Shown piece by piece: positions 2,919 through 57,244 of a stretch of 64,000 nucleotides of DNA. The stretch comes from Candidatus Poribacteria bacterium. GTDB taxonomy: Bacteria > Poribacteria > WGA-4E > WGA-3G. The position numbers and the translations under genes are program-made. The notes below the pieces were generated by a model. The model saw only the letters and a list, made by a program, of their open reading frames with translations. It searched no databases and had not been told where the DNA came from. The DNA is taken from contig OY282386.1 of assembly GCA_958295945.1 (NCBI GenBank), positions 2,906,204 to 2,970,203 on the forward strand, written 5' to 3'. How positions within the stretch are numbered: the first letter of the stretch is position 1; the number at the start of each line of letters is the position of its first letter.

Positions 2919-3398
2919 TCTTATGTGTTTGTGTTCACAGTGTGTGAAGAAACATTGTCTGGATTTAGTGCAAAATTTGATAAAACTATCCGGGTAGGCG
3001 CGGTTTATTAATTGAGATATTGTATCTACATGATTGGTAATAAGGGTGTGGATTTGTATTATAATTCATCGATTGGTAATACTTCACACGTAGGTTTGCG
3101 ATATATTTCGTCTAAGTTAGGAATAAAGTTTATCTTTGAATGTGTTAATGGATAGTAGTATAAAAGGCAAGGATGCCGAACAAAAACACGCCTAAATCGA
3201 TGATTGTCAATATTATACCTTCTCTATTGTTAGAATACAAGCAAATTTGAATAGTAGTTTTTACTTGAGTTTTTTGTTGTGTGTGATATACTACTGAAAA
3301 TCTTTTTGTTCCAATCCTTGAGTATGAAGCAGAGATTTTGTCTTGAACATAGTTTCAAACTTAGTTTATTGATTATCGCTAAATGAGAGGTATTAGAT

Positions 3399-4379
3399 AT
3401 GGTTAATTGTGCATTGCTTAGTGGTAGAGGAATGGGTATGATGCATGGTGGAAACTTCCATAACCATCCAGATGCGGAAGTTGTCGCAGTATGCGAAATG
3501 AATCCTGATCTGCTTGAAAAAGCGAAAGAACACTTCGGGGTTCCTGGTTACACATCCATTGAGGAGTTGTTAGCAAACTGTGATGCAGAACTTGTCCTGC
3601 TGATCGTTAACGAAACGCGTCGTATTCCACCATTAAGCGAACTGATTGCTGGTGGACGAAATGTATTTACAGAAAAACCGCTGTGTGGATTAGAAGGACA
3701 AGCACGAGTTCGTGAAGAGGATCTCAAGATTGCGGCACCTGCAATCAAAAGTTGGCGCGGATCAGATCTGAAATTTGGCATTGATTTTAATTATCGGTTT
3801 ATGCATCATTTCAGAAAACTGCACGATGATGTTGCTGACGGTGTGTTAGGTGAAATCAAAATGGTTCATGCACGCGCGCATTTCAATTGTTGGTCACATA
3901 TCATAGATTTGATTTTATGGACTATAGGTCGTCCAGATTGGGTGAGTGTCGTCGGTGATCCAAATGAGTCTGGTGGATGGGCACGATTGATTCATATCGG
4001 TTGGCCGAACGGTGTCATCGGTACACTAAGCGGTACAAATCTATGGGGTTATGATGATGATCCTCTTCGTATCAAAGTTCTTGGTGATAAGTCATACGCT
4101 GAGGCGAAAGGCTTAGATGGGAAATACTTACGCCGCAAAGCGGGTAACTCTGAAGTTGAGGAACGATGGGAAAACGAACAAGGTAATCCTGAAATGCCTG
4201 AATCCTTCAAGAGAATGGCAGATGGTGTTATAAAAGCGATGCAATCTGATAATGCTTTTCCTGCCGATGGGAATGCTGCATGGAATGAATTGCTATTTGA
4301 GGCTGCTGTTCATAGATCAGCCTTACAAGAAAATGCTCGTATTTCTCTTAATGATGTAGAAGAAGACGCATTTGCGTAA
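3399..4379 (+). CDS. Gfo/Idh/MocA family NAD(P)-dependent oxidoreductase
   Basis: GAGAGG RBS lies 8 nt upstream. The product has an N-terminal Rossmann-like GRGMGMMHGG...AVCEMNPD region, a TEKPL motif and the C-terminal alpha/beta domain typical of the family. Confidence 0.7.
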   Translation: MVNCALLSGRGMGMMHGGNFHNHPDAEVVAVCEMNPDLLEKAKEHFGVPGYTSIEELLANCDAELVLLIVNETRRIPPLSELIAGGRNVFTEKPLCGLEGQARVREEDLKIAAPAIKSWRGSDLKFGIDFNYRFMHHFRKLHDDVADGVLGEIKMVHARAHFNCWSHIIDLILWTIGRPDWVSVVGDPNESGGWARLIHIGWPNGVIGTLSGTNLWGYDDDPLRIKVLGDKSYAEAKGLDGKYLRRKAGNSEVEERWENEQGNPEMPESFKRMADGVIKAMQSDNAFPADGNAAWNELLFEAAVHRSALQENARISLNDVEEDAFA

Positions 4380-4689
4380 ATTTAGAATTGGGCGCGGTTT
4401 TGAACCGTGCTTTTAATTATAAATTGCGGTCACAAAGACTCCGCACTGCAATGATCTAAATGTCTTGTTTCCAATTTGATGTCTATGGTGTTGTTTCATG
4501 ACCACATCATCGGCATCAGTTTGTGTACATACATAATCGCGACTTCTTGTTGAAGGTATTTGTAACGTCTCCAACAAGAATCGGGGTTATAAACCCTCCA
4601 ACAAGATGAGTTAGTGACAATTGAATGGATATCCACTTAAGACAGGACTATTTATAGTGGAATGGACAATTAATAGGACACGTCTCAGA

Positions 4690-4713
4690 GGGCGAGGAAA
4701 CCTCGCCCCTACG
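4690..4713 (-). repeat. REP-like element copy 1: 8-bp GC-rich stem (gggcgagg/cctcgccc), AAA loop, then CTACG (GTAG head on the minus strand)
   Basis: Read directly from sequence. Copies 2 and 3 have the same architecture with compensatory stem substitutions. Confidence 0.55.
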
Positions 4714-4886
4714 GGACTTGTGGTACTTGCAAGTGCATTGAAATGTCTTCTTAATTCTAAACTGGACTATAAATAACCCTGCAATTAAAATGAATTCATT
4801 GAAAATTGTGATAGGATATGCTAAAATTGCATGCAGAAGATAAGAATTAACACAAAATTCTCGGATAAAACGGAGAAACAATCCAC

Positions 4887-7766
4887 ATGAAACGTTCTGT
4901 ATTTTTTATAATTGCGATTTGCTTCGGATTACTCGGTAATTTGATAGTTCAAGCACAGCAGACAACGCCTCTGGTAGGAACTGGCATACAACCAGAAATT
5001 AAACGAATGACTGCTAAACTGTCTGGAGAAGTAATCTGGAAAGGTTTTGACCTGTCTCATACTAACGTATCTGTGTATCGTGATGAAAAACTGAAAGACA
5101 TTTACACTAGTGGTGTATCAAAATTAGGCACTGGCACATTTACGCTCCGTGTGGAACCTGGACGGTACTATTTGGTCGCTTATGTGGATGTTGATGGTTC
5201 AGGGAAGTTTGATGAAGGTGATGGCTACGGTGTATTGGGTATAAAGAATTGGAGTGATGAGAATCAGACACATGTTGCCATCGAAGTGGGTACAAACACA
5301 GCAATAAAAGGAATACAGATACCGATAACAGCGAGACTTCAAGGCGTTGAAGAAACGCAGAAACTTGTACCTGCAGCTACATATAAACCGAGTAAATACC
5401 AACAATTCAAAACTGAACTCATTAAGGCAACATCTGGTCTACGCGGCACACTCAACTATTCGGGAGAAAGTGAAATTGCCGAAGAGCACAAGCTTGTTCT
5501 TGCCTATACAGATACATCATGGAAATATCGTGCTGGGATTGCTATTGTTAATGACAAGACAAACGAATGGGAACTCCGTTTGAAGCCTGGGAAATACTAT
5601 CTGATGGCGATTGTTGACAAAAATGGTAGCAACAAACTTGATGATGATGATATTTTCGGTTTTTATGGTCTTAAAGACATATACAAAAAAGGAGCATTTC
5701 CAGAACCTGTATTGGTTAAACCCAGTTCATTTGCTGAAGGTGTTGAAATACATCTAACTGCTACCTATAAAAAGGTAGACCTTACAGAAGCATCAGAAGT
5801 GACAGCGATCATATCAGGACGAGTTTTTCCAATACCACAAACAGCGACAGATGTCCGGATTGAAGTTTATGATAATTCTGCCTTTGTAAAACCCCTCGCG
5901 ACAACGGTTACCAATCCTGATGGCACATATCGTCTTCAACTTCCACCTGGAGAATACTACATCATTGCTAATCACGATGCTGATGGAGACGGTAGATATA
6001 GCAAAGGAGATAGGTTGGGTGGATTAGGAACTGAGTCAATCACTACAGAACAACCTGCTGCAGTCGCATTTGATGCAGGCGAAACAAACGATATCAATAT
6101 CCGATTAAGCGCACAGTATGATGCAGACGGTCAACTTGTTGCTAACAACAATCCGAATATAACACCTTCTGTCGTCGATTTGGGTGCGAATCCATCTCCA
6201 GGTGTTCCACAAGAAGTAAAAATGGGGAGTATTACAGGGAAAGTGACTTCGTTCTTTGCATCGCGAAATGATAAATCCAAGAATGACAACGGTTCATCAG
6301 ATGAGGAGATACCTGTTCCTGATGGTATTCTGAGTCTTTCTACGACACCTGATTTCAGTTCTCCTATGGTGGTTCCACTCATACTTGATGAAGATGGAAA
6401 CTACCTTGTTGATGTTGAATCCGGTAGATACTTTATCCTTGCTGTAGTAGACCAAAATAGGGATGGTGCATCAGGTTTGTCTGATGGTATTGGTGTTTAT
6501 GGGACACATCAACCGGTACGTGGCACACCTGCTCCCGTTTCTGTTTTAGAGGGTAAGACCACGCCACATGTTGATATTGATATTATGGCATCTTATGTGG
6601 ATGAGGCAGGAACGATGTCTGAAATTGAAGATGGTGGACGGTGGAATATTGCGCGTATGCATGGTGAACCGGAGGATATATTCAAATATACACAACAGGG
6701 CAAACAGATTGAAGAGTGGATGTATTGGACAAAAGGTATTGGATTTAAATTTGTAGCGGAAGGTGCTGGCTGGAAATTAAATGATCAGGAAGAGTTTGAA
6801 CCAAACATACAGAATATAAGTAAAGAAACAAAAACACCTGATGGGGTAAAACAAGATGGTGCTAATGAAACAATAGTAAATAAGCCTGATAAAGTAGAAT
6901 TAAGTAAGTTTTCTTTGACTGCAGCATCTGTTTCAATCTTCTACAGTCATGATGGGGTATTATGGCGTATTGCCCCAACAACAGCAGAAGATTTAAAACT
7001 AAACGTTTTTCGTGATATGCCCGTGGATTCACGTGTAGCACCACTTGGAGCAGGTCATCGTCCCTCTGTATCTGTGAATGGAACGCTTGTCTACCATGAT
7101 TTTGATAACAATGTTATTCTTAGAGACATTAAAACTGGAAAAAGCACGGTTTATTTTGATGGACGTGCTCTCGCAGAAGATGTGAAGATTTCACCTGATG
7201 GGGAACATATAGCATTTTCACGGAACGAAGGGAACGATAGAAAGAGGATTGTCATTCAAAATATACGTAATGAGAATATATTCCTTGTCCCTTCAACAGC
7301 GAGAGAAATGACGCATCCTGCTTGGAGCATAGATGGTCAATTCCTTGCATATTCTACTGCTGGTTCAATTGAGAATCCTGCTGCAGATACAAATCGGAAC
7401 ATCTTTCTATTCAATCAAGGAACAAACAGTGTTGAACCAATTGTCATTTCCCCAGCAGATGATGCGGAACCCTCCTGGCATCCTACTGACAGAAATACAC
7501 TTGTGTTTTCCAGAGGCACTGATGGAAGCGTCCGTCAGATATGGGTGGTCAATTATTCGTCTACCGGTGAACGGACAGAACAACAGATAACTGAAATGGG
7601 TGGGAATCGTCCCGTATGGGTGCCACCGAATGGACGTTGGATTGTTTATGAAAACAATGGGCAACTCTGGACAGTGGACTATCAAAATCCAGGAAGTGAA
7701 TTTCCGCTGTTGAGTAATGGAAAAGTTGTGTTTGGGTATCAACCTGTTGCAGTTTCTGTTGAGTGA
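4887..7766 (+). CDS. Secreted 959-aa multidomain protein: signal peptide, four carboxypeptidase-regulatory-like/DUF2141-like beta-sandwich repeats, C-terminal TolB-like PD40 beta-propeller
   Basis: The N-terminus MKRSVFFIIAICFGLLGNLIVQAQQ is a signal peptide. The motif PG(R/K/E)YY(L/I)xA..D.(D/N)G(S/D)G(K/R).D.GD..G..G recurs four times, for example LPPGEYYIIANHDADGDGRYSKGD. The C-terminus carries SPDGEHIAFS..., PAWSIDGQFLAY... and PSWHPTDRNTLVFS... PD40-type blades. Confidence 0.6.
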   Translation: MKRSVFFIIAICFGLLGNLIVQAQQTTPLVGTGIQPEIKRMTAKLSGEVIWKGFDLSHTNVSVYRDEKLKDIYTSGVSKLGTGTFTLRVEPGRYYLVAYVDVDGSGKFDEGDGYGVLGIKNWSDENQTHVAIEVGTNTAIKGIQIPITARLQGVEETQKLVPAATYKPSKYQQFKTELIKATSGLRGTLNYSGESEIAEEHKLVLAYTDTSWKYRAGIAIVNDKTNEWELRLKPGKYYLMAIVDKNGSNKLDDDDIFGFYGLKDIYKKGAFPEPVLVKPSSFAEGVEIHLTATYKKVDLTEASEVTAIISGRVFPIPQTATDVRIEVYDNSAFVKPLATTVTNPDGTYRLQLPPGEYYIIANHDADGDGRYSKGDRLGGLGTESITTEQPAAVAFDAGETNDINIRLSAQYDADGQLVANNNPNITPSVVDLGANPSPGVPQEVKMGSITGKVTSFFASRNDKSKNDNGSSDEEIPVPDGILSLSTTPDFSSPMVVPLILDEDGNYLVDVESGRYFILAVVDQNRDGASGLSDGIGVYGTHQPVRGTPAPVSVLEGKTTPHVDIDIMASYVDEAGTMSEIEDGGRWNIARMHGEPEDIFKYTQQGKQIEEWMYWTKGIGFKFVAEGAGWKLNDQEEFEPNIQNISKETKTPDGVKQDGANETIVNKPDKVELSKFSLTAASVSIFYSHDGVLWRIAPTTAEDLKLNVFRDMPVDSRVAPLGAGHRPSVSVNGTLVYHDFDNNVILRDIKTGKSTVYFDGRALAEDVKISPDGEHIAFSRNEGNDRKRIVIQNIRNENIFLVPSTAREMTHPAWSIDGQFLAYSTAGSIENPAADTNRNIFLFNQGTNSVEPIVISPADDAEPSWHPTDRNTLVFSRGTDGSVRQIWVVNYSSTGERTEQQITEMGGNRPVWVPPNGRWIVYENNGQLWTVDYQNPGSEFPLLSNGKVVFGYQPVAVSVE

Positions 7767-7830: not shown

Positions 7831-8301
7831 ATGAAAAGGACATACAATATGAGTAGAAACAGACGTAGAAAAATCATTATAGGACATTTACCTTCAGACA
7901 TCAACCAGTCAAGCAATGACATTTTATCTCAAAAGATATTTGAACAGATAGATGATCTACTCACTAATGAATACGACTGGGATGAAATTGGTTATGAGAA
8001 ACCACGTCCGGAAGATATTGATAAGGCAAAAAATGTTATGTCCAATTTTATTTCATCAATAAATTCGGCAGGATATTCATTGTTTTCATTAGAAACACCG
8101 TCTATTTCCAATGGTGAAAATGGTGGTGCAACTATAGAGTGGCGCGAAAATGGAAGGAGTCTATATTTTGACATCAACCATCAAAGTATAAAGTTTACGA
8201 AGGTGTGGACAGAAGGCAAGAATACAATAGTGAGAACTAAGAAACTTCACAAGAGTGATTATGTGAAAGTATGGGAATGGATATTAAATGAACGATCCTG
8301 A
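7831..8301 (+). CDS. Hypothetical protein (156 aa), first gene of an AT-rich three-ORF islet
   Basis: The ATG is preceded by a purine-rich stretch and the ORF overlaps the next ORF by 14 nt (ATGAACGATCCTGA). No recognisable domain. Confidence 0.45.
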   Translation: MKRTYNMSRNRRRKIIIGHLPSDINQSSNDILSQKIFEQIDDLLTNEYDWDEIGYEKPRPEDIDKAKNVMSNFISSINSAGYSLFSLETPSISNGENGGATIEWRENGRSLYFDINHQSIKFTKVWTEGKNTIVRTKKLHKSDYVKVWEWILNERS

Positions 8302-8724: not shown

Positions 8725-8945
8725 TAGTAATTGGACAAACTCAATTGAGAAACAACAAGGTAACATTCCATATACAAATTAGAATGTTACCTTTTTTATT
8801 GTCAAAAAAAAGAAAATACAATAAAATTATAGAAATAAAATGATGAATGTGTCAAAACTACTTATTACAATCGCAGCTTCAGTTCATGATGTCCTTATAC
8901 CAAATTAACGAGATTTTTCCTGTTTTCGATGCCGAGAACACGGGC

Positions 8946-8969
8946 GGGCAGGGGAACCCTGCCCCTACG
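8946..8969 (-). repeat. REP-like element copy 2: stem gggcaggg/ccctgccc, GAA loop, then CTACG
   Basis: Same architecture as copy 1, with compensatory stem substitutions (CGAG->CAGG paired with CTCG->CCTG). It lies 48 nt upstream of the secreted-protein gene at 9017. Confidence 0.55.
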
Positions 8970-9016
8970 ATTTAGGTTAATTTGGTATTATACTTGATAT
9001 AGCGAGGTACAACTAT

Positions 9017-10330
9017 ATGTATAGCTTAAAAAGATTTCTCCAATTAATGTTAATGATGGTTTTCTTTATGCTGCTTCTTACAACAGCATCAGCACAATAT
9101 CTTCTCATCCCAATGGATAATGTGCAGACAAACCACCTGAAAGCCTATGGATTGACCTATTGGGCATTGGAAGTGCCGCGGGAATACAGTTGTTACTGGT
9201 GGCTGAACTATCGTGGTGGATCGTTTGTTACTCCTGATGCTGCGGATGTGAAACTACGAGCAGCACAGATGGGTGTTACTTTTGAAACGTTGAGTGCTGT
9301 TGAATATCAGACAATCAAAGAGAGCCTCATTGAAACAAGTAATATGGATGAGATATTACTTGAAAAAGCACCAAAGATTGCTGTGTATGCACCACCTGAA
9401 GCGTCTCCATTTCAAGATCCTTGGGACGATGCGGTGAAAATTGCTCTGGATTACGCTGAGATTTCTTATGACCAAATTTGGGACAATGAGGTGCAACGAG
9501 GTGCTCTACACACGGAAGGTTACGATTGGTTACATCTGCATCACGAAGATTTTACTGGACAGCACGGCAAATTTCACGGTTCATTTTCACACCAAGTATG
9601 GTATCAACAACGGATGGCACTATTTGAGAAAACTGCAAAAGAATCAGGTTTTAAAAGCGTATCACGCCATAAAGGGCAAACTGCACTGGACATTGCAGAT
9701 TATGTAGCAAAAGGTGGATTTATATTTGCCATGTGTTCTGCCCCTGAAACGCTGGATATTGCCTTAGCATCAAAGGGTGGTACGCTTGATATTGTTGATC
9801 CTGTGTTAGATGCTACACCGCTTGCTCAGGATTTTCAAAAGAAATTGGACTTTGAACACACATTTGCATTTGAGAATTTTACACTCTATCCAAACCCGAA
9901 CAAATATGAATTTTCTGATATTGATAATCCGAATCCTGATATGAGTCCACACACGGGGGTTGAGGATTTCAAACTCTTTGAATTTTCTGCGAAACATGAT
10001 CCGATACCAACAATGTTGACACAAAACCACGTCTCAGAAGTGCCGGGTTTCCTTGGACAAACAACATCATTTAATAAGAACACGATAAACCGATCAGTCA
10101 CGATTTTAGCCAATATTGAAGGCACAAACTATGTCAAATATGTTCATGGCACATTGGGAAAGGGTACATTTACATTTCTCGGTGGACATGACCCAGAGGA
10201 TTACCGCCATCTTGTCGGTGAAGGAAAGATACCAACCAATCTTGACCTGCATAAGCATTCACCCGGTTATCGGTTGATATTAAACAATATCCTGTTCCCT
10301 GCCGCTCGTAAAAAACCACAGAAAACCTAA
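9017..10330 (+). CDS. Secreted hypothetical protein (437 aa), possibly with a class-I glutamine amidotransferase/DJ-1-like fold
   Basis: The N-terminus has a signal-peptide-like hydrophobic stretch (MMVFFMLLLTTASAQ). An internal GGFIFAMCSAPETLD carries a candidate nucleophile cysteine. Assignment is weak. Confidence 0.4.
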   Translation: MYSLKRFLQLMLMMVFFMLLLTTASAQYLLIPMDNVQTNHLKAYGLTYWALEVPREYSCYWWLNYRGGSFVTPDAADVKLRAAQMGVTFETLSAVEYQTIKESLIETSNMDEILLEKAPKIAVYAPPEASPFQDPWDDAVKIALDYAEISYDQIWDNEVQRGALHTEGYDWLHLHHEDFTGQHGKFHGSFSHQVWYQQRMALFEKTAKESGFKSVSRHKGQTALDIADYVAKGGFIFAMCSAPETLDIALASKGGTLDIVDPVLDATPLAQDFQKKLDFEHTFAFENFTLYPNPNKYEFSDIDNPNPDMSPHTGVEDFKLFEFSAKHDPIPTMLTQNHVSEVPGFLGQTTSFNKNTINRSVTILANIEGTNYVKYVHGTLGKGTFTFLGGHDPEDYRHLVGEGKIPTNLDLHKHSPGYRLILNNILFPAARKKPQKT

Positions 10331-16259: not shown

Positions 16260-16480
16260 ACAATTTCTCCCAATTTTCTTATGAGGGTTTTACACAACTA
16301 ATGATTTGATCAGGCTGCACGATAACCCTCTGCATCGCGCATTTTGCTATCAACTTTCATCTATGATAACAATTTGCAAAAAAATAATCAAGAATATTGT
16401 CTTTTGTGGGGTGTGTGTAAAGTATTTGTCACATCATCCCATTATAGTAGATTTTGAAAGGACTTGAACACTCTGCATCA

Positions 16481-16506
16481 GCGAGGTTAGAAAACCTCGC
16501 CTACCG
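16481..16506 (-). repeat. REP-like element copy 3: stem gcgaggtt/aacctcgc, AGAA loop, then CTACCG
   Basis: Same stem-loop-plus-CTAC(C)G architecture in the 340-bp gap between the SBP and ATPase genes. Confidence 0.5.
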
Positions 16507-16602
16507 TGGGTCGACAGTGTCAACTTATATTTATAATTCACTATAAAGTCTACTATATTCGGACACCTGTTGACTCACTGGACTTATGTGTGACAGAAAC
16601 CA

Positions 16603-19466: not shown

Positions 19467-19798
19467 CTATCGTAACGTGAGTTTGATATAAAGGTTAGAA
19501 AAACCGATACAATATATAACATTTATCACAGATTTGATGACGGGCATGTTCTGGCATTCCAGTGGAGTGCTATGTCTATAGAAAATCCAAACACAAAGTT
19601 CTTGCACTCCAGCGGAGTGCTATGTGTGATAATCTCACATACCGCTCCGCTGGAGCGGAAACACTGGTTCGGATGAATACTATAAACATATTGCTCCGCT
19701 GGAGCAAAGAAGGTGTTTGGGTTACGTTGGAACTGCTTTAGTTTAATTGAATTCCCCTGATGAACCAATCTCTTATATTCGAACTCACGTTATCGTAG
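19467..19798. mobile_element. MITE-like structured element (~330 bp) with 21-bp imperfect terminal inverted repeats and internal direct and inverted repeats of a CTCC-N3-GGAG core
   Basis: TIRs are 19467-19487 (ctatcgtaacgtgagtttgat) and 19778-19798 (ttcgaactcacgttatcgtag), matching 16/21 in reverse complement. Internal 27-bp direct repeats lie at 19554-19580 and 19604-19630 (22/27). Inverted copies (ctccgctggag) lie at 19645-19655 and 19694-19704. The element is non-coding. Confidence 0.4.
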
Positions 19799-45953: not shown

Positions 45954-46754
45954 TTGAGGGAATTAATGAGAAGAAATACATTTCGTGAATTACTTAATGC
46001 TGATAAACCAACCGTAGGAACACATATCCATACAACTTGGCCATCCATCGTTGAAGCAATTGGACATACAGGATTATATGACTATGTTGAATTTGTTGGG
46101 GAATACGGTCCATTTGACTTACACGATTTAGATAATTTGTGTAGAGCTGCTGAACTCCATAATATTTCAACAATGATTAAAGTTGACCAAGAACCGCGGG
46201 GATTCATTGCACAGCGCGCGATCGGTTCTGGATTCCAGAGTGTGCTTTATGCCGATTGTCAAAACGTTGAAGATGTGAAGGAGTGTGTGAAAATTACGCG
46301 TGCAGATACACCACAAGATGGAGGTAGTTACGGTGTTGCTACGCGCAGGTTCTCATATATGGGATATGGAGGCGGACCAGAATATGTTCAAGCACTACGA
46401 GATGTCGTCGTTGTTATTATGATTGAGAAGAAAGGGACAGTTGACAATCTTGAAGAGGTAATGTCCGTTGAAGGCGTTGACATGATACAATGGGGTGGTT
46501 CGGATTACTCTATGAGTATTGGTAAGGTTGGTCAGCGCGGTTCTTCAGAAATCCAAGAAACGGAACGGAGAGTATTTGAAACCGCATTAAAGATGGGAGT
46601 TCCGCCTCGGGCAGAGATTGGTAGTGCTGATGGCGCAAAACGATTTCTTGATATGGGGGTCCGACACTTCTGTATCGGAACTGATATATCTATTCTCTAT
46701 GGCTGGTGGCGCGAACATGGTGATGGATTACGGAAAGCACTTGAGGGACATTAA
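45954..46754 (+). CDS. HpcH/HpaI-family 2-keto-3-deoxy-acid aldolase
   Basis: 266 aa. N-terminal NTFRELLNADKPTVGTHI..., internal ...IMIEKKGTVDNLEEVMSVEGVDMIQWGGSDYSMSIG... and ...FCIGTDISIL match the HpaI/HpcH/2-keto-3-deoxy-L-rhamnonate aldolase pattern (TIM-barrel). Confidence 0.7.
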   Translation: MRELMRRNTFRELLNADKPTVGTHIHTTWPSIVEAIGHTGLYDYVEFVGEYGPFDLHDLDNLCRAAELHNISTMIKVDQEPRGFIAQRAIGSGFQSVLYADCQNVEDVKECVKITRADTPQDGGSYGVATRRFSYMGYGGGPEYVQALRDVVVVIMIEKKGTVDNLEEVMSVEGVDMIQWGGSDYSMSIGKVGQRGSSEIQETERRVFETALKMGVPPRAEIGSADGAKRFLDMGVRHFCIGTDISILYGWWREHGDGLRKALEGH

Positions 46755-46758
46755 ATCA

Positions 46759-46824
46759 GTTGTCAGTCGTCAGTTATAGAGGATTCTGAACCAACAAAGT
46801 CATCTATAACTGACCGCTGACAAC
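46759..46824. terminator. Long inverted repeat (21-bp arms, 2 mismatches, 24-nt loop) between convergent genes; a bidirectional terminator candidate
   Basis: Arms are gttgtcagtcgtcagttatag (46759-46779) and ctataactgaccgctgacaac (46804-46824). It begins 5 nt after the aldolase stop and ends 7 nt before the creatininase stop. Confidence 0.35.
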
Positions 46825-46830
46825 CAAAAA

Positions 46831-47562
46831 CTATGACAACATCTCTTGCATCTTTCCTGCAACCCAATCAACCGCAACATCAATCATTACCTGTCCACTT
46901 TCTGAAGTAGCGAGTTTTGCCTGATGATGATATTCTCTGTCAGATTTTGCTTGTCCTTCATTGGAAATTGTGAGTTTAGCACTGTCGTAATCAACACCAT
47001 TCCAATCAACGTTTTCTGCAAAAGCAGCAAGTGCAAACGCAGTCTCAAATTCCGCTGCATGTCCTGGACAAATTCCTGACTCCATCTGTTCTTGAACTAA
47101 CTCACCAGAGTATGCTTCCCAGTATGAGTGGAATGCGATATTGATTCCCAATTTTTCTCTGTAACCATCCAATCGTTGATGTACTGGTCCAGCATTCCCA
47201 GCATGTCCATTGACAATTAAAATGTTTTCAACACCATGTCGTCGCATGCTATCTGCAACATCGTATAGGACCTCACCGAACACCTCTGCACGAAGTGTGA
47301 GCGTGCCTTTATGATCCATCCAATGTTCCGAGACACCGATGGCTAAAGGCGTTGTCACTATTACCTGTGGGTATAACTTCTCTGCTGCCAGCTTAGACAC
47401 ATACACAGCACTCTGTGTATCGTGGTACATCGCTAAATGCTCGTTGTGTTGTTCTGTGCTGCCTGTGGGAATAATAGCACCTTTGAGCGTGCCAGCGTCT
47501 ATCGCCTCACGCACATATCGCCTTTGGTTTTCCCACAATAACACTGATTTTATTTGAGACAT
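46831..47562 (-). CDS. Creatininase/creatinine amidohydrolase-family protein
   Basis: IIPTGSTEQHNEHLAMYHDTQ...TPLAIGVSEHW...ILIVNGHAGNAG matches the creatininase-family metal-binding pattern; 243 aa. Confidence 0.7.
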   Translation of the reverse strand: MSQIKSVLLWENQRRYVREAIDAGTLKGAIIPTGSTEQHNEHLAMYHDTQSAVYVSKLAAEKLYPQVIVTTPLAIGVSEHWMDHKGTLTLRAEVFGEVLYDVADSMRRHGVENILIVNGHAGNAGPVHQRLDGYREKLGINIAFHSYWEAYSGELVQEQMESGICPGHAAEFETAFALAAFAENVDWNGVDYDSAKLTISNEGQAKSDREYHHQAKLATSESGQVMIDVAVDWVAGKMQEMLS

Positions 47563-51078: not shown

Positions 51079-52299
51079 CTAATAAACTTCTCGCAATGTA
51101 ACACTAACAATACTATGATTATAGTTAAGAAAATCAAGGATAGGATCTAATTCATTTGTTCGGTTCTGTGTGAATTGGTAATCAGCACTCAACGATAGAT
51201 TGCCAGAGAATTTCCAATTGAACGCAGCAGTAAATCCAAATTGTGTATCTCTCCTATCTTCTGCCCCTTCCATAATATTCCCATGCTCATCTCGAATCTG
51301 TCTACCATCAAACAACACCCATACACGAGCGAACCTTAACCGGAACCATCGTCCCGTGTCAAATTTGTAAAATGTGCTTAAAGCAGCTTCCATACTTAAA
51401 AAGTTGAAAAAATCTACATTAGAACGGTTAGAAAAGAAATTTGCTTCCTCTTGAAAAACAATACGGTCTGATACTGTTTCTAACAATTTGATTCCACCAG
51501 AATATCTCAAATCGAGTCTGCTTTCTCCAGGTTCCAGTCCAGATACACCTAATATCAGATTGTTCAAATTGGTATCATATTGACCATATTCTACAGCATA
51601 TTCCATTTTAGCTAACACCTGCTTTAGCAAACCAAATTGCAAACGAGCAGTTGTCCTGTGACTTGTAGATCCAATCAATAGAAAATCCTCTCTCAACTGT
51701 ATTGTATCGTCAAAATTGTGAATTCGCATATTATACTCAAATATACGTCCAATACGAAAACCAATATTCCTTTCGGTATTGTTGTAGACATCAAGGGTTC
51801 GTGTTAAACGATGAAACCGATGCGATGCAACAAAGGCAGGCAAACCAGAAAATGGACGGTAAAGCAGCTCTGTTGTTGACACATCTGTGAATGAATCAAA
51901 TTCATTGAGTTTTCCAGATTCACCAGAGTAATTTTCATATTGTGGTGAATACTGCACTTTCAGTCGGAGATTATCACCTGTAACAGGTAAATCACCGATT
52001 AGATCCAAACCGAATCGGTTAATATAACCTTGCAGTTCTGGACTTTCCTGACCAGCAAGGCTGCTCGTATAAGGATCAACACTTAATCCAAGTTCAATAT
52101 GATTGTTATATGTATTGGAAATTCGCGCATCTATTGTCAGTTTAGATGGTTCCGTCGTCTCTGGAGGAATTGGTTCTAACTGTAGCAATTCCGGTCCGAA
52201 TTCATCCTGTAACTGTGCAAACACATGTTGCCACTGACTAAAGAAAAGCAGAAATATAATGAGCACTATTATGCGAATACAATAAGACATATTAAACAC
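51079..52299 (-). CDS. Outer-membrane beta-barrel-like hypothetical protein (406 aa)
   Basis: Signal peptide (IIVLIIFLLFFSQWQHVFAQ), alternating amphipathic beta-strand pattern and a C-terminal ...VTLREVY aromatic terminus. Confidence 0.4.
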   Translation of the reverse strand: MFNMSYCIRIIVLIIFLLFFSQWQHVFAQLQDEFGPELLQLEPIPPETTEPSKLTIDARISNTYNNHIELGLSVDPYTSSLAGQESPELQGYINRFGLDLIGDLPVTGDNLRLKVQYSPQYENYSGESGKLNEFDSFTDVSTTELLYRPFSGLPAFVASHRFHRLTRTLDVYNNTERNIGFRIGRIFEYNMRIHNFDDTIQLREDFLLIGSTSHRTTARLQFGLLKQVLAKMEYAVEYGQYDTNLNNLILGVSGLEPGESRLDLRYSGGIKLLETVSDRIVFQEEANFFSNRSNVDFFNFLSMEAALSTFYKFDTGRWFRLRFARVWVLFDGRQIRDEHGNIMEGAEDRRDTQFGFTAAFNWKFSGNLSLSADYQFTQNRTNELDPILDFLNYNHSIVSVTLREVY

Positions 52300-52441
52300 A
52301 ATTTCTCCAATTTCACATATACAAATGCGACCAGGACTTCAAACATACCGTAGGCGCGCTTTGTAAGCGCGCCATAAATATATTTTCATCAGTTACAACC
52401 ACCAAATTAGGTACTGTTTTTATAGGACTCAGAAATTTACA

Positions 52442-56473: not shown

Positions 56474-57244
56474 TCAGATCGTCTGTGTGTTTTTCTGACG
56501 TTTCCGCCACGGCATTGCCCAAAATTCCAATAGAGACATAATTGCAAATAAACCTAATCCCAAGAATGTTAGACTGAAAATTGCAGCAAAAACAAGATCT
56601 ACCTCAAGCGTTGAATTAGCATACAACATCAAAAACCCAAGTCCTGCACTTGCCCCTACCCATTCACCGATCACAGCACCAATTGTGGATATTGAGATAC
56701 CAATTTTCGCGCCAGAAAAGATGAACGGTAGTGCAGTAGGTATACGCACTTTCCAAAGTATCTGCCATCGTGATGCACGTAGTATCTTAAAGAGGTCCAC
56801 CGTATCCGGATCGGTAGATTTCAATCCATCTAATGTAGTTAGGACAATAGAAAAAAACACAATAATTGCTGCCATCATAACTTTTGAGGCAATCCCAAAC
56901 CCAAACCAAACGACTAACAATGGGGCAATCGCAAACACAGGTACCGTTTGGGAACCAATTACATAAGGATAAAATGCTTTCTCCAAAATCGGAAACTCAA
57001 ACATCAGCACTGCTAAAGGGACACCAACACTAACCGCAAGTGCAAATCCGAGCAACATTTCTTGTAATGTCACCCAAGAATGCTTCAATAATCGATCGTG
57101 TTCTTCAAATAGGGTTACTACTATTTTTGATGGTGGCGGAAGAATAAAGTGTGGTATCTCTTTAATATACACATATACTTCCCAAGTTCCCAACACAGCC
57201 AACAATATCAGTACTGGTAACACATAATTACTGAAAGAACGCAT
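56474..57244 (-). CDS. ABC transporter permease (nitrate/sulfonate/bicarbonate-type, ThiX-like)
   Basis: Six predicted TM helices with the EAA-like loop region (..LKSTDPDTVDLFKILRASRWQILWKVRIPTALP). Confidence 0.7.
   Translation of the reverse strand: MRSFSNYVLPVLILLAVLGTWEVYVYIKEIPHFILPPPSKIVVTLFEEHDRLLKHSWVTLQEMLLGFALAVSVGVPLAVLMFEFPILEKAFYPYVIGSQTVPVFAIAPLLVVWFGFGIASKVMMAAIIVFFSIVLTTLDGLKSTDPDTVDLFKILRASRWQILWKVRIPTALPFIFSGAKIGISISTIGAVIGEWVGASAGLGFLMLYANSTLEVDLVFAAIFSLTFLGLGLFAIMSLLEFWAMPWRKRQKNTQTI

Follow-up and report, generated by a model that had tools for sequence, protein, structure and literature searches.

What are the short GC-rich hairpins that recur between the genes of this locus, and what put them there? 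The locus is a 64-kb stretch of DNA, referred to below as the window. Its proteins are 53-73% identical to those of poribacterial loci, with local synteny, and from these matches the window most likely belongs to a genome of ~40% GC from Poribacteria or a close relative. Candidatus Poribacteria is a mostly uncultured phylum, best known for sponge symbionts. The initial annotation had described three hairpins here and had proposed that they are repetitive extragenic palindromes (REPs), the short repeats that are mobilised by RAYT transposases.

Results

Four hairpins with a CTAC foot

The letters at 4690-4713, 8946-8969 and 16481-16506 were re-read and are identical to those first reported. The count of three has to be revised, since a fourth tagged copy was found on the minus strand at 52348-52373. 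The proposed architecture, a GC-rich stem with a short loop and CTAC, holds throughout: all four copies have perfect stems of 8-9 bp and loops of 3-4 nt, and in all four CTAC stands directly 3' of the hairpin on one strand, that is, GTAG stands at its 5' foot. Every copy is intergenic.

Copy 1 (4690-4713) has its GTAG on the minus strand. It reads GGGCGAGG aaa CCTCGCCC CTACG on the plus strand, with the hairpin at 4690-4708 and the CTAC tag at 4709-4712, and 5'-CGTAG GGGCGAGG ttt CCTCGCCC on the minus strand. It lies 311 nt past the stop of an oxidoreductase gene (3399-4379) and 174 nt ahead of the start, at 4887, of a gene for a PD40/CarboxypepD_reg protein. Copy 2 (8946-8969), also with GTAG on the minus strand, reads GGGCAGGG gaa CCCTGCCC CTACG on the plus strand and is flanked by genes for two secreted proteins without annotation, the second of which starts 48 nt further on, at 9017. 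Compared with copy 1, two adjacent stem pairs are swapped (GA/TC versus AG/CT), and the change is compensated on both arms.

Copy 3 (16481-16506; GTAG on the minus strand; plus strand GCGAGGTT agaa AACCTCGC CTACCG) lies between two minus-strand genes, at a distance of 97 nt from the stop of an ABC ATPase gene and of 222 nt from the start of a gene for a periplasmic binding protein; with respect to transcription, it points the other way from copies 1, 2 and 4. Copy 4 (52348-52373) has its GTAG on the plus strand. It reads GCGCGCTT aca AAGCGCGC CTACGG on the minus strand and 5'-CC GTAG GCGCGCTT tgt AAGCGCGC C on the plus strand, where GTAG occupies 52350-52353 and the arms of a 9-bp stem 52353-52361 and 52365-52373. 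It is found 69 nt past the thiG stop and ~50 nt before the start of a minus-strand gene for an unannotated secreted protein (51079-52299).

The copies fall into two sequence classes: GTAG-GGGC-NNNN-loop-NNNN-GCCC (the GGGC..GCCC class, copies 1 and 2) and GTAG-GCGNNNTT-loop-AANNNCGC (the GCGNNNTT..AANNNCGC class, copies 3 and 4). None of the four has an inverted partner within about 100 nt, as a REPIN doublet would, and all are singletons.

Two further sites were considered. Among six matches to GTAGGSGMR in the window, the sole intergenic one beyond the four REP copies is at 2994-3006 on the plus strand, where the GTAG foot is joined to a left arm, GTAGGCGCGGTTT, that lacks its right-hand counterpart. 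It may be a truncated REP remnant; the assignment is uncertain, with a chance match as the alternative. The sequence GTAGGGGCA at 56651 was rejected as a REP and is taken as a chance match, being inside a permease gene and forming no hairpin.

Chance does not account for the tagged hairpins

Only seven different perfect GC-rich hairpins with stems of 7 bp or more occur in the window, and four of the seven carry the CTAC tag at their foot. A loose IUPAC pattern matched the window four times, three of the matches being REP copies, against 0.42 expected, and none of 100 shuffled sequences reached four matches; the six GTAGGSGMR matches compare with 0.96 expected. We then scored the window with a covariance model (R1) built from 47 copies from other genomes and none from the window. 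Copy 1 scored 37.6 bits (E 4.8e-8), copy 2 35.3 bits (E 2e-7), copy 4 32.4 bits (E 1.2e-6) and copy 3, with its 4-nt loop, 20.8 bits (E 1.7e-3). The next matches were the reverse strands of these four, followed by an untagged hairpin at E 0.32. CTAC is invariant in 47 of the 47 copies used for the model. The occurrence of the tagged hairpins in the window by chance is excluded.

The untagged hairpin, at 4390-4412, lies 11 nt past the stop of the oxidoreductase gene (3399-4379). It reads GGGCGCGGTT-ttg-AACCGTGCTT, includes G-T pairs and is followed by a T-rich tail. In its stem it is similar to the poribacterial REP class GCGCGGTT/AACCGCGC, and it may be either a genuine terminator or a decayed REP that was recruited as one.

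No Rfam family matched the hairpins above its gathering threshold. The single Rfam match in the window is a TPP riboswitch (RF00059, 57363-57462, minus strand, 70.9 bits), located upstream of a thiamine-related operon whose last genes are thiS, an MNT/HEPN-like pair and thiG. In a single intergenic region at 19560-19705, four copies of another small palindrome, CTCC-RSY-GGAG (for instance GCACTCCAGCGGAGTGCTATGT), are gathered within 150 nt; two of them form perfect 7-bp hairpins that have no GTAG foot. The cluster gave no credible Rfam match and is perhaps an array of operators or a separate repeat family.

On a larger scale, genes are on the plus strand over 1-14.85 kb and on the minus strand from 15.1 kb, and GC skew passes from positive to negative over 14-26 kb. 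The combined switch in strand and skew (~14.8-16.3 kb) fits a replication terminus region.

A hairpin family in other genomes and in phages

Copies 1 and 2 were combined into a family pattern, GGGCNNGGNNNCCNNGCCCCTACG, in which two stem pairs and the loop are unconstrained. It was found at 77 sites in 64 loci of IMG/VR and in at least 120 loci of GTDB genomes (one genome per species). Among the GTDB loci listed, Candidatus Poribacteria MAGs are the most frequent label (~43); the others include Cyanobacteria (Stigonema, Calothrix, Planktothrix and others), Chloroflexota, Armatimonadota, Latescibacterota, Ignavibacteria and Acidobacteriota, among further labels. Overall, GGGC-NNNN-loop-NNNN-GCCC-CTAC occurs in MAGs labelled as more than 10 phyla or candidate divisions and in phage contigs, and even the exact 24-mer of copy 1 is present in other genomes and in phage contigs.

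The stem pairs left free by the pattern provide an unbiased test of covariation. Both free pairs are complementary in 63 of the 67 viral matches listed and 113 of the 130 genome matches listed (176/197), compared with a chance expectation of 1 in 16. These positions carry seven to nine different dinucleotides, and the loops are mostly N-R-A. The suggestion that the stems differ from copy to copy yet stay complementary is thus upheld, both by these matches and by the compensated change between copies 1 and 2. Covariation statistics from our alignment A1 were set aside as circular, because its rows had been picked for pairing. When the compared loci were scanned for any hairpin followed by CTAC, the GGGC/GCCC clamps and CTAC were found to be kept, while the inner four pairs and the loop vary.

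The window has four tagged hairpins in 64 kb; 331 kb of poribacterial loci have 59 beyond the 44 copies by which the loci were selected, or ~1 per 5.6 kb. The sequence of copy 4, with G or A at one stem position, is present four times in 16 kb of the poribacterial MAG CAXXUA01 (L166, L179) and also in 10 metagenome contigs. Among the loci first compared, the class of copies 3 and 4 was seen solely in poribacterial ones. A literature search by the literal repeat sequence returned only unrelated eukaryotic G-rich promoters.

One of the viral loci, L004 (IMGVR_UViG_3300043295_000206), is a bona fide phage fragment with PHROG matches to portal and large terminase proteins. It contains ~18 REP copies in 11.8 kb, up to ~1.5 per kb (e.g., 8099-8145, 9362-9384 and 9980-10026). 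Several of these REPs, in-frame doublets included, are inside the portal and terminase ORFs, and the reading frame and the homology on either side of them are intact.

RAYT genes stand beside the repeats in related genomes

The initial annotation had found no RAYT gene in the window, and our searches agree: neither a RAYT nor an IS200-like gene was detected in the 64 kb by tblastn, phmmer or HMM. RAYT genes were sought with tblastn, with phmmer and with an HMM built from matches to E. coli RayT. E. coli (MG1655) RayT had no tblastn match in the window or in the viral loci, and phmmer and the custom HMM found no RAYT in 551 kb of phage loci. The same E. coli query did match several of the genome loci that had been selected by their REPs, at ~28% identity over 90 residues. 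RAYT-like ORFs were present in six of the 120 listed REP-selected loci, one of them a fragment (L149), and no other was found among 10,436 ORFs.

All five full-length ORFs match the NCBIfam model NF047646, 'REP-associated tyrosine transposase'. The poribacterial ORF L186:5212-5685 scored 121.5 bits against a cut-off of 80; those of L128 (Chloroflexi), L132 (Latescibacterota), L177 (Armatimonadota) and L168 (Poribacteria) matched below the cut-off, with E values of 1e-14 to 1e-18. Four of the five also match Pfam Y1_Tnp, above the Pfam cut-off in L186 alone. The HUH motif aligns as PDHVH in L186 and as MPNHVH in L128, L132 and L168, and the W-Q...Y motifs align too.

Each of the five full-length RAYT genes is flanked by tagged hairpins within ~100 nt. 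Upstream of the L186 gene is GGTAG-GTGCGGTT-tcc-AACCGCAC, and downstream of it is a tandem cluster with a 106-bp period, GCGCAGTT-gaa-AACAGCGC-CTACC; these hairpins are of the class of window copies 3 and 4. The copy-1/2 class flanks the RAYT genes of L128, L132 and L177, which come from phyla other than Poribacteria. Two of these genes have REP doublets in frame inside the RAYT gene itself (L128:3826-3927 and L132:880-949), between the HUH and Tyr motifs, where they translate as '...GGETPP...'.

Orientation, dimers and position relative to genes

The setting of the repeats was counted in genome loci of at most 55% GC. Of 141 copies in these loci, 118 lie outside greedy ORF calls, and the copies between genes are distributed over co-directional (75), convergent (14) and divergent (11) neighbours. 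Single-tag copies between co-directional genes are oriented along transcription in 31 cases and against it in 31. Close pairs are mostly inverted, with GTAG outermost (13 versus 6), and the family also includes double-foot copies, in which one end carries GTAG and the opposite end CTAC. Both the 31:31 orientation and the dimers match published GTAG REPs (PMC3733652) and argue against a strand-specific RNA element. We also considered whether phage copies are always sense-oriented ahead of a ribosome-binding site; this was not upheld (19:18).

Repeats come and go at orthologous sites

Parts of the window have orthologous counterparts, at 76-79% nucleotide identity, in two metagenome contigs, L189 and L191. 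In the L189 ortholog of the copy-1 intergenic region, the promoter-proximal part is conserved, copy 1 is absent and a different GTAG double-foot palindrome is present ~100 nt away. Upstream of the gene orthologous to the oxidoreductase gene at 3399, L189 is packed with several types of GTAG-tagged REP that are missing from the window, and its counterpart of the 2994-3006 region includes an intact copy-4-type REP. L191 has a REP doublet in a convergent intergenic region where the window has an unrelated AT-rich palindrome. At closer range, in the near-identical strain represented by L001 (a 21-kb contig matching ThiG), copy 4 is kept as the A variant, with one uncompensated stem substitution. 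REPs have been gained or lost between these related genomes (L189, L191), and they are not conserved regulatory sites.

Two window features at these sites may be recorded here. The AT-rich palindrome, TTGTCAGTCGTCAGTTATAGA ... TCTATAACTGACCGCTGACAA at 46760-46830, lies between the convergent genes 45954-46754 (plus strand) and 46831-47562 (minus strand) and is probably a bidirectional terminator. At 4570-4608, ~90 nt upstream of copy 1, a 9-nt direct repeat, CCAACAAGA, surrounds a 14-nt palindrome, GGGGTTATAAACCC; the GTAG double-foot palindrome of L189 is at roughly this position. The repeat could be a footprint or could be due to chance.

Larger inverted repeats around copies 1-3

Copies 1-3 lie inside larger inverted repeats that are specific to each copy and have exact cores of 10, 13 and 9 bp: 4643-4781 (38 nt at 74%), 8897-8988 (13/13) and 16437-16563 (19 nt at 84%). 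That around copy 2 is a perfect 13-bp repeat with arms at 8897-8909 and 8976-8988. In intergenic controls, cores of at least 9 bp were found at 5.5% of positions, of at least 10 bp at 1% and of at least 13 bp at 0 of 597. A copy-4-type REP in a poribacterial MAG has the same layout (L166:3634-3752): a 12-bp inverted repeat, AGGACTTACGCA / TGCGTAAGTCCT, encloses it, and 7 nt separate the REP from the right arm. As a general property of REPs, however, the flanking inverted repeats had to be rejected: around 96 isolated REPs, the longest repeat averaged 6.3 nt, versus 6.2 nt in controls.

The pentanucleotide GGACT/AGTCC is found at 4645, 4714, 4764, 16460, 52334 and 52425, six occurrences within 60 nt of REPs against 0.6 expected, in a count made post hoc. 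In poribacterial loci GGACT is not enriched near REPs (17 versus 12.7) and has no fixed spacing or orientation, and neither GGACT nor TAGGAC shows convincing enrichment across the window. The larger inverted repeats and GGACT around the window's REPs could mean that the REPs entered older hairpins at their single-stranded loops.

Discussion

We consider it very likely that the four sites are REPs of the GTAG-tagged superfamily; by extrapolation from relatives, they would be served by a RAYT encoded elsewhere in the genome. The REP/RAYT reading put forward in the initial annotation is borne out at the level of the family, by covariation, by the occurrence of copies in both orientations, by dimers with GTAG outside and by RAYT genes flanked by the hairpins.

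By analogy with work on the E. coli TnpA-REP (PMC3479197, PMC8266576, PMC6006769), the unit would fold as a hairpin in single-stranded DNA, and a RAYT (TnpA-REP, an HUH/Y1 enzyme) encoded elsewhere in the genome would recognise the stem-loop together with its GTAG foot. The predicted enzyme would cut and rejoin the DNA beside the hairpin, and over evolutionary time copies would be generated, moved or removed in this way. Each REP class would be expected to have its own cognate RAYT. The stems would stay complementary, with the inner sequence free, because only copies that can fold would be substrates and propagate. In REPIN theory, the mobile unit is an inverted doublet; as singletons rather than such doublets, the window's four copies are probably remnants that move rarely or no longer at all. 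Adjacent mRNAs may gain a stable hairpin from them on transcription, as a by-product.

An improbable alternative is that the hairpins are terminators, or stabilisers of mRNA 3' ends, selected in place, with CTAC either incidental or acting at the level of RNA. Their position is compatible with it, all four copies lying downstream of a gene's 3' end and the family mostly between co-directional genes, and the stems are very stable; such secondary roles have indeed been proposed for REPs (PMC3733652). However, no T run follows any of the four copies and none was called terminator-like, while the gene before copy 1 has a terminator-like hairpin with a T tail of its own, at 4390-4412, 280 nt upstream of the copy. 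Termination also leaves unexplained the invariance of the CTAC foot across phyla, the 31:31 orientation and the association with RAYT genes.

Still harder to sustain is the idea that the hairpins are leftover ends or miniature derivatives of IS200/IS605 elements rather than REPs of a domesticated RAYT. The two kinds of element share an enzyme superfamily and the same logic of a hairpin plus a tetranucleotide, and the L186 protein also matches the IS200 model (E 1.6e-11). That protein nevertheless scores 121.5 bits with NF047646 versus 44.5 bits with IS200 TnpA, below the cut-off of 55. No window copy has tnpA or tnpB beside it or forms part of a paired left and right end, the genes in relatives are flanked by multi-copy REP clusters and not by IS ends, and the 5' GTAG foot is a REP signature (PMC6006769).

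The initial annotation had also placed two copies upstream of genes for secreted proteins, a link that turned out to be wider than reported, in that each of the four copies precedes, by 48-222 nt, a gene whose product has a signal-peptide-like start (4887 and 9017 on the plus strand, 16259 and 52299 on the minus strand), with P ~0.01 given that a crude heuristic calls ~14 of the 51 window genes signal-peptide-like, and three of the four are oriented as the downstream gene. A shared operator or 5'-UTR element for genes of secreted or periplasmic proteins is nonetheless the least credible explanation of all, since the sample is four sites, the distance to the start codon varies from 48 to 222 nt, copy 3 is inverted, the family has no orientation bias, copy 1 is missing upstream of the same gene in L189 where the promoter-proximal sequence is conserved, and the inner stem is free to vary, unlike a protein operator. 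The link is probably incidental, and the secreted-gene neighbours are probably a by-product of placement in long intergenic regions.

Read as REPs, the repeats fit closely with the GTAG-tagged superfamily described by Di Nocera, De Gregorio and Rocco (2013, PMC3733652), to which the SMAG repeats of Stenotrophomonas maltophilia belong. As in that superfamily, GTAG is directly at the foot of a short GC-rich stem (6-9 bp in the published families), sub-families differ by complementary stem changes, both singletons and head-to-head dimers with GTAG outside are seen, and copies are mostly between co-directional or convergent genes with occasional intragenic ones. The loops are very short in both; 'TY' loops were reported in the superfamily, and those found here are T-Y-N in the GTAG orientation. 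The hosts in that survey were Proteobacteria, Cyanobacteria, Chloroflexi and the PVC group, and Poribacteria were not among them. Our comparison with the 24 published families was made by these described traits (PMC3733652).

According to Quentin et al. (2018, PMC6006769), no TnpA-REP subclass other than 2.4 has an in-frame insertion in the RAYT gene. Members of this subclass are dispersed among many phyla and abundant in Cyanobacteria, and their REPs are either canonical or 'double-foot', the latter bearing GT[AG]G at one end and C[TC]AC at the opposite end. The in-frame REP doublets of L128 and L132, the double-foot copies and the spread over many phyla are shared with this subclass, and the RAYTs beside the copy-1/2 class thus appear to resemble subclass 2.4, an assignment made from these traits. 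Unlike subclass 2.4, the L186 RAYT, which accompanies the copy-3/4 class, has no insertion, and it may belong to another subclass.

The E. coli REP/BIME system with RayT (YafM) is alike in its 5' GTAG foot, its hairpin and an HUH/Y1 gene flanked by its own REPs, and E. coli RayT and the RAYTs found here all match NF047646. The E. coli REPs differ in being ~35-nt imperfect palindromes with bulges, whereas the repeats here are perfect hairpins of 19-20 nt. Doublets like the REPINs of Pseudomonas fluorescens (Bertels and Rainey 2011, PMC3116915) do occur in the family, for example in L004, L191 and L108; in contrast, no partner stands within 100 nt of any of the four window singletons, and hence none of them is a REPIN.

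We found no published description of REPs in Poribacteria. The window adds no new mechanism, and the kind of repeat is itself already known; what is new is only its presence in a lineage that is probably poribacterial, by which the GTAG-REP/RAYT system is extended to Candidatus Poribacteria. For annotation, the combination of GTAG, an 8-bp GC stem and an N-R-A loop offers a signature by which such repeats need not be miscalled as terminators, operators or small RNAs.

The presence of a near-identical REP class in many phyla and in phages provides a handle on how REPs and RAYTs spread. It is tempting, if on balance unlikely, to regard the GGGC..GCCC-CTAC class as a single REP family spread over more than 10 phylum labels by phage carriage. 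If that were true, phages could be the carriers by which REPs, and possibly RAYTs too, reach further lineages, Poribacteria among them.
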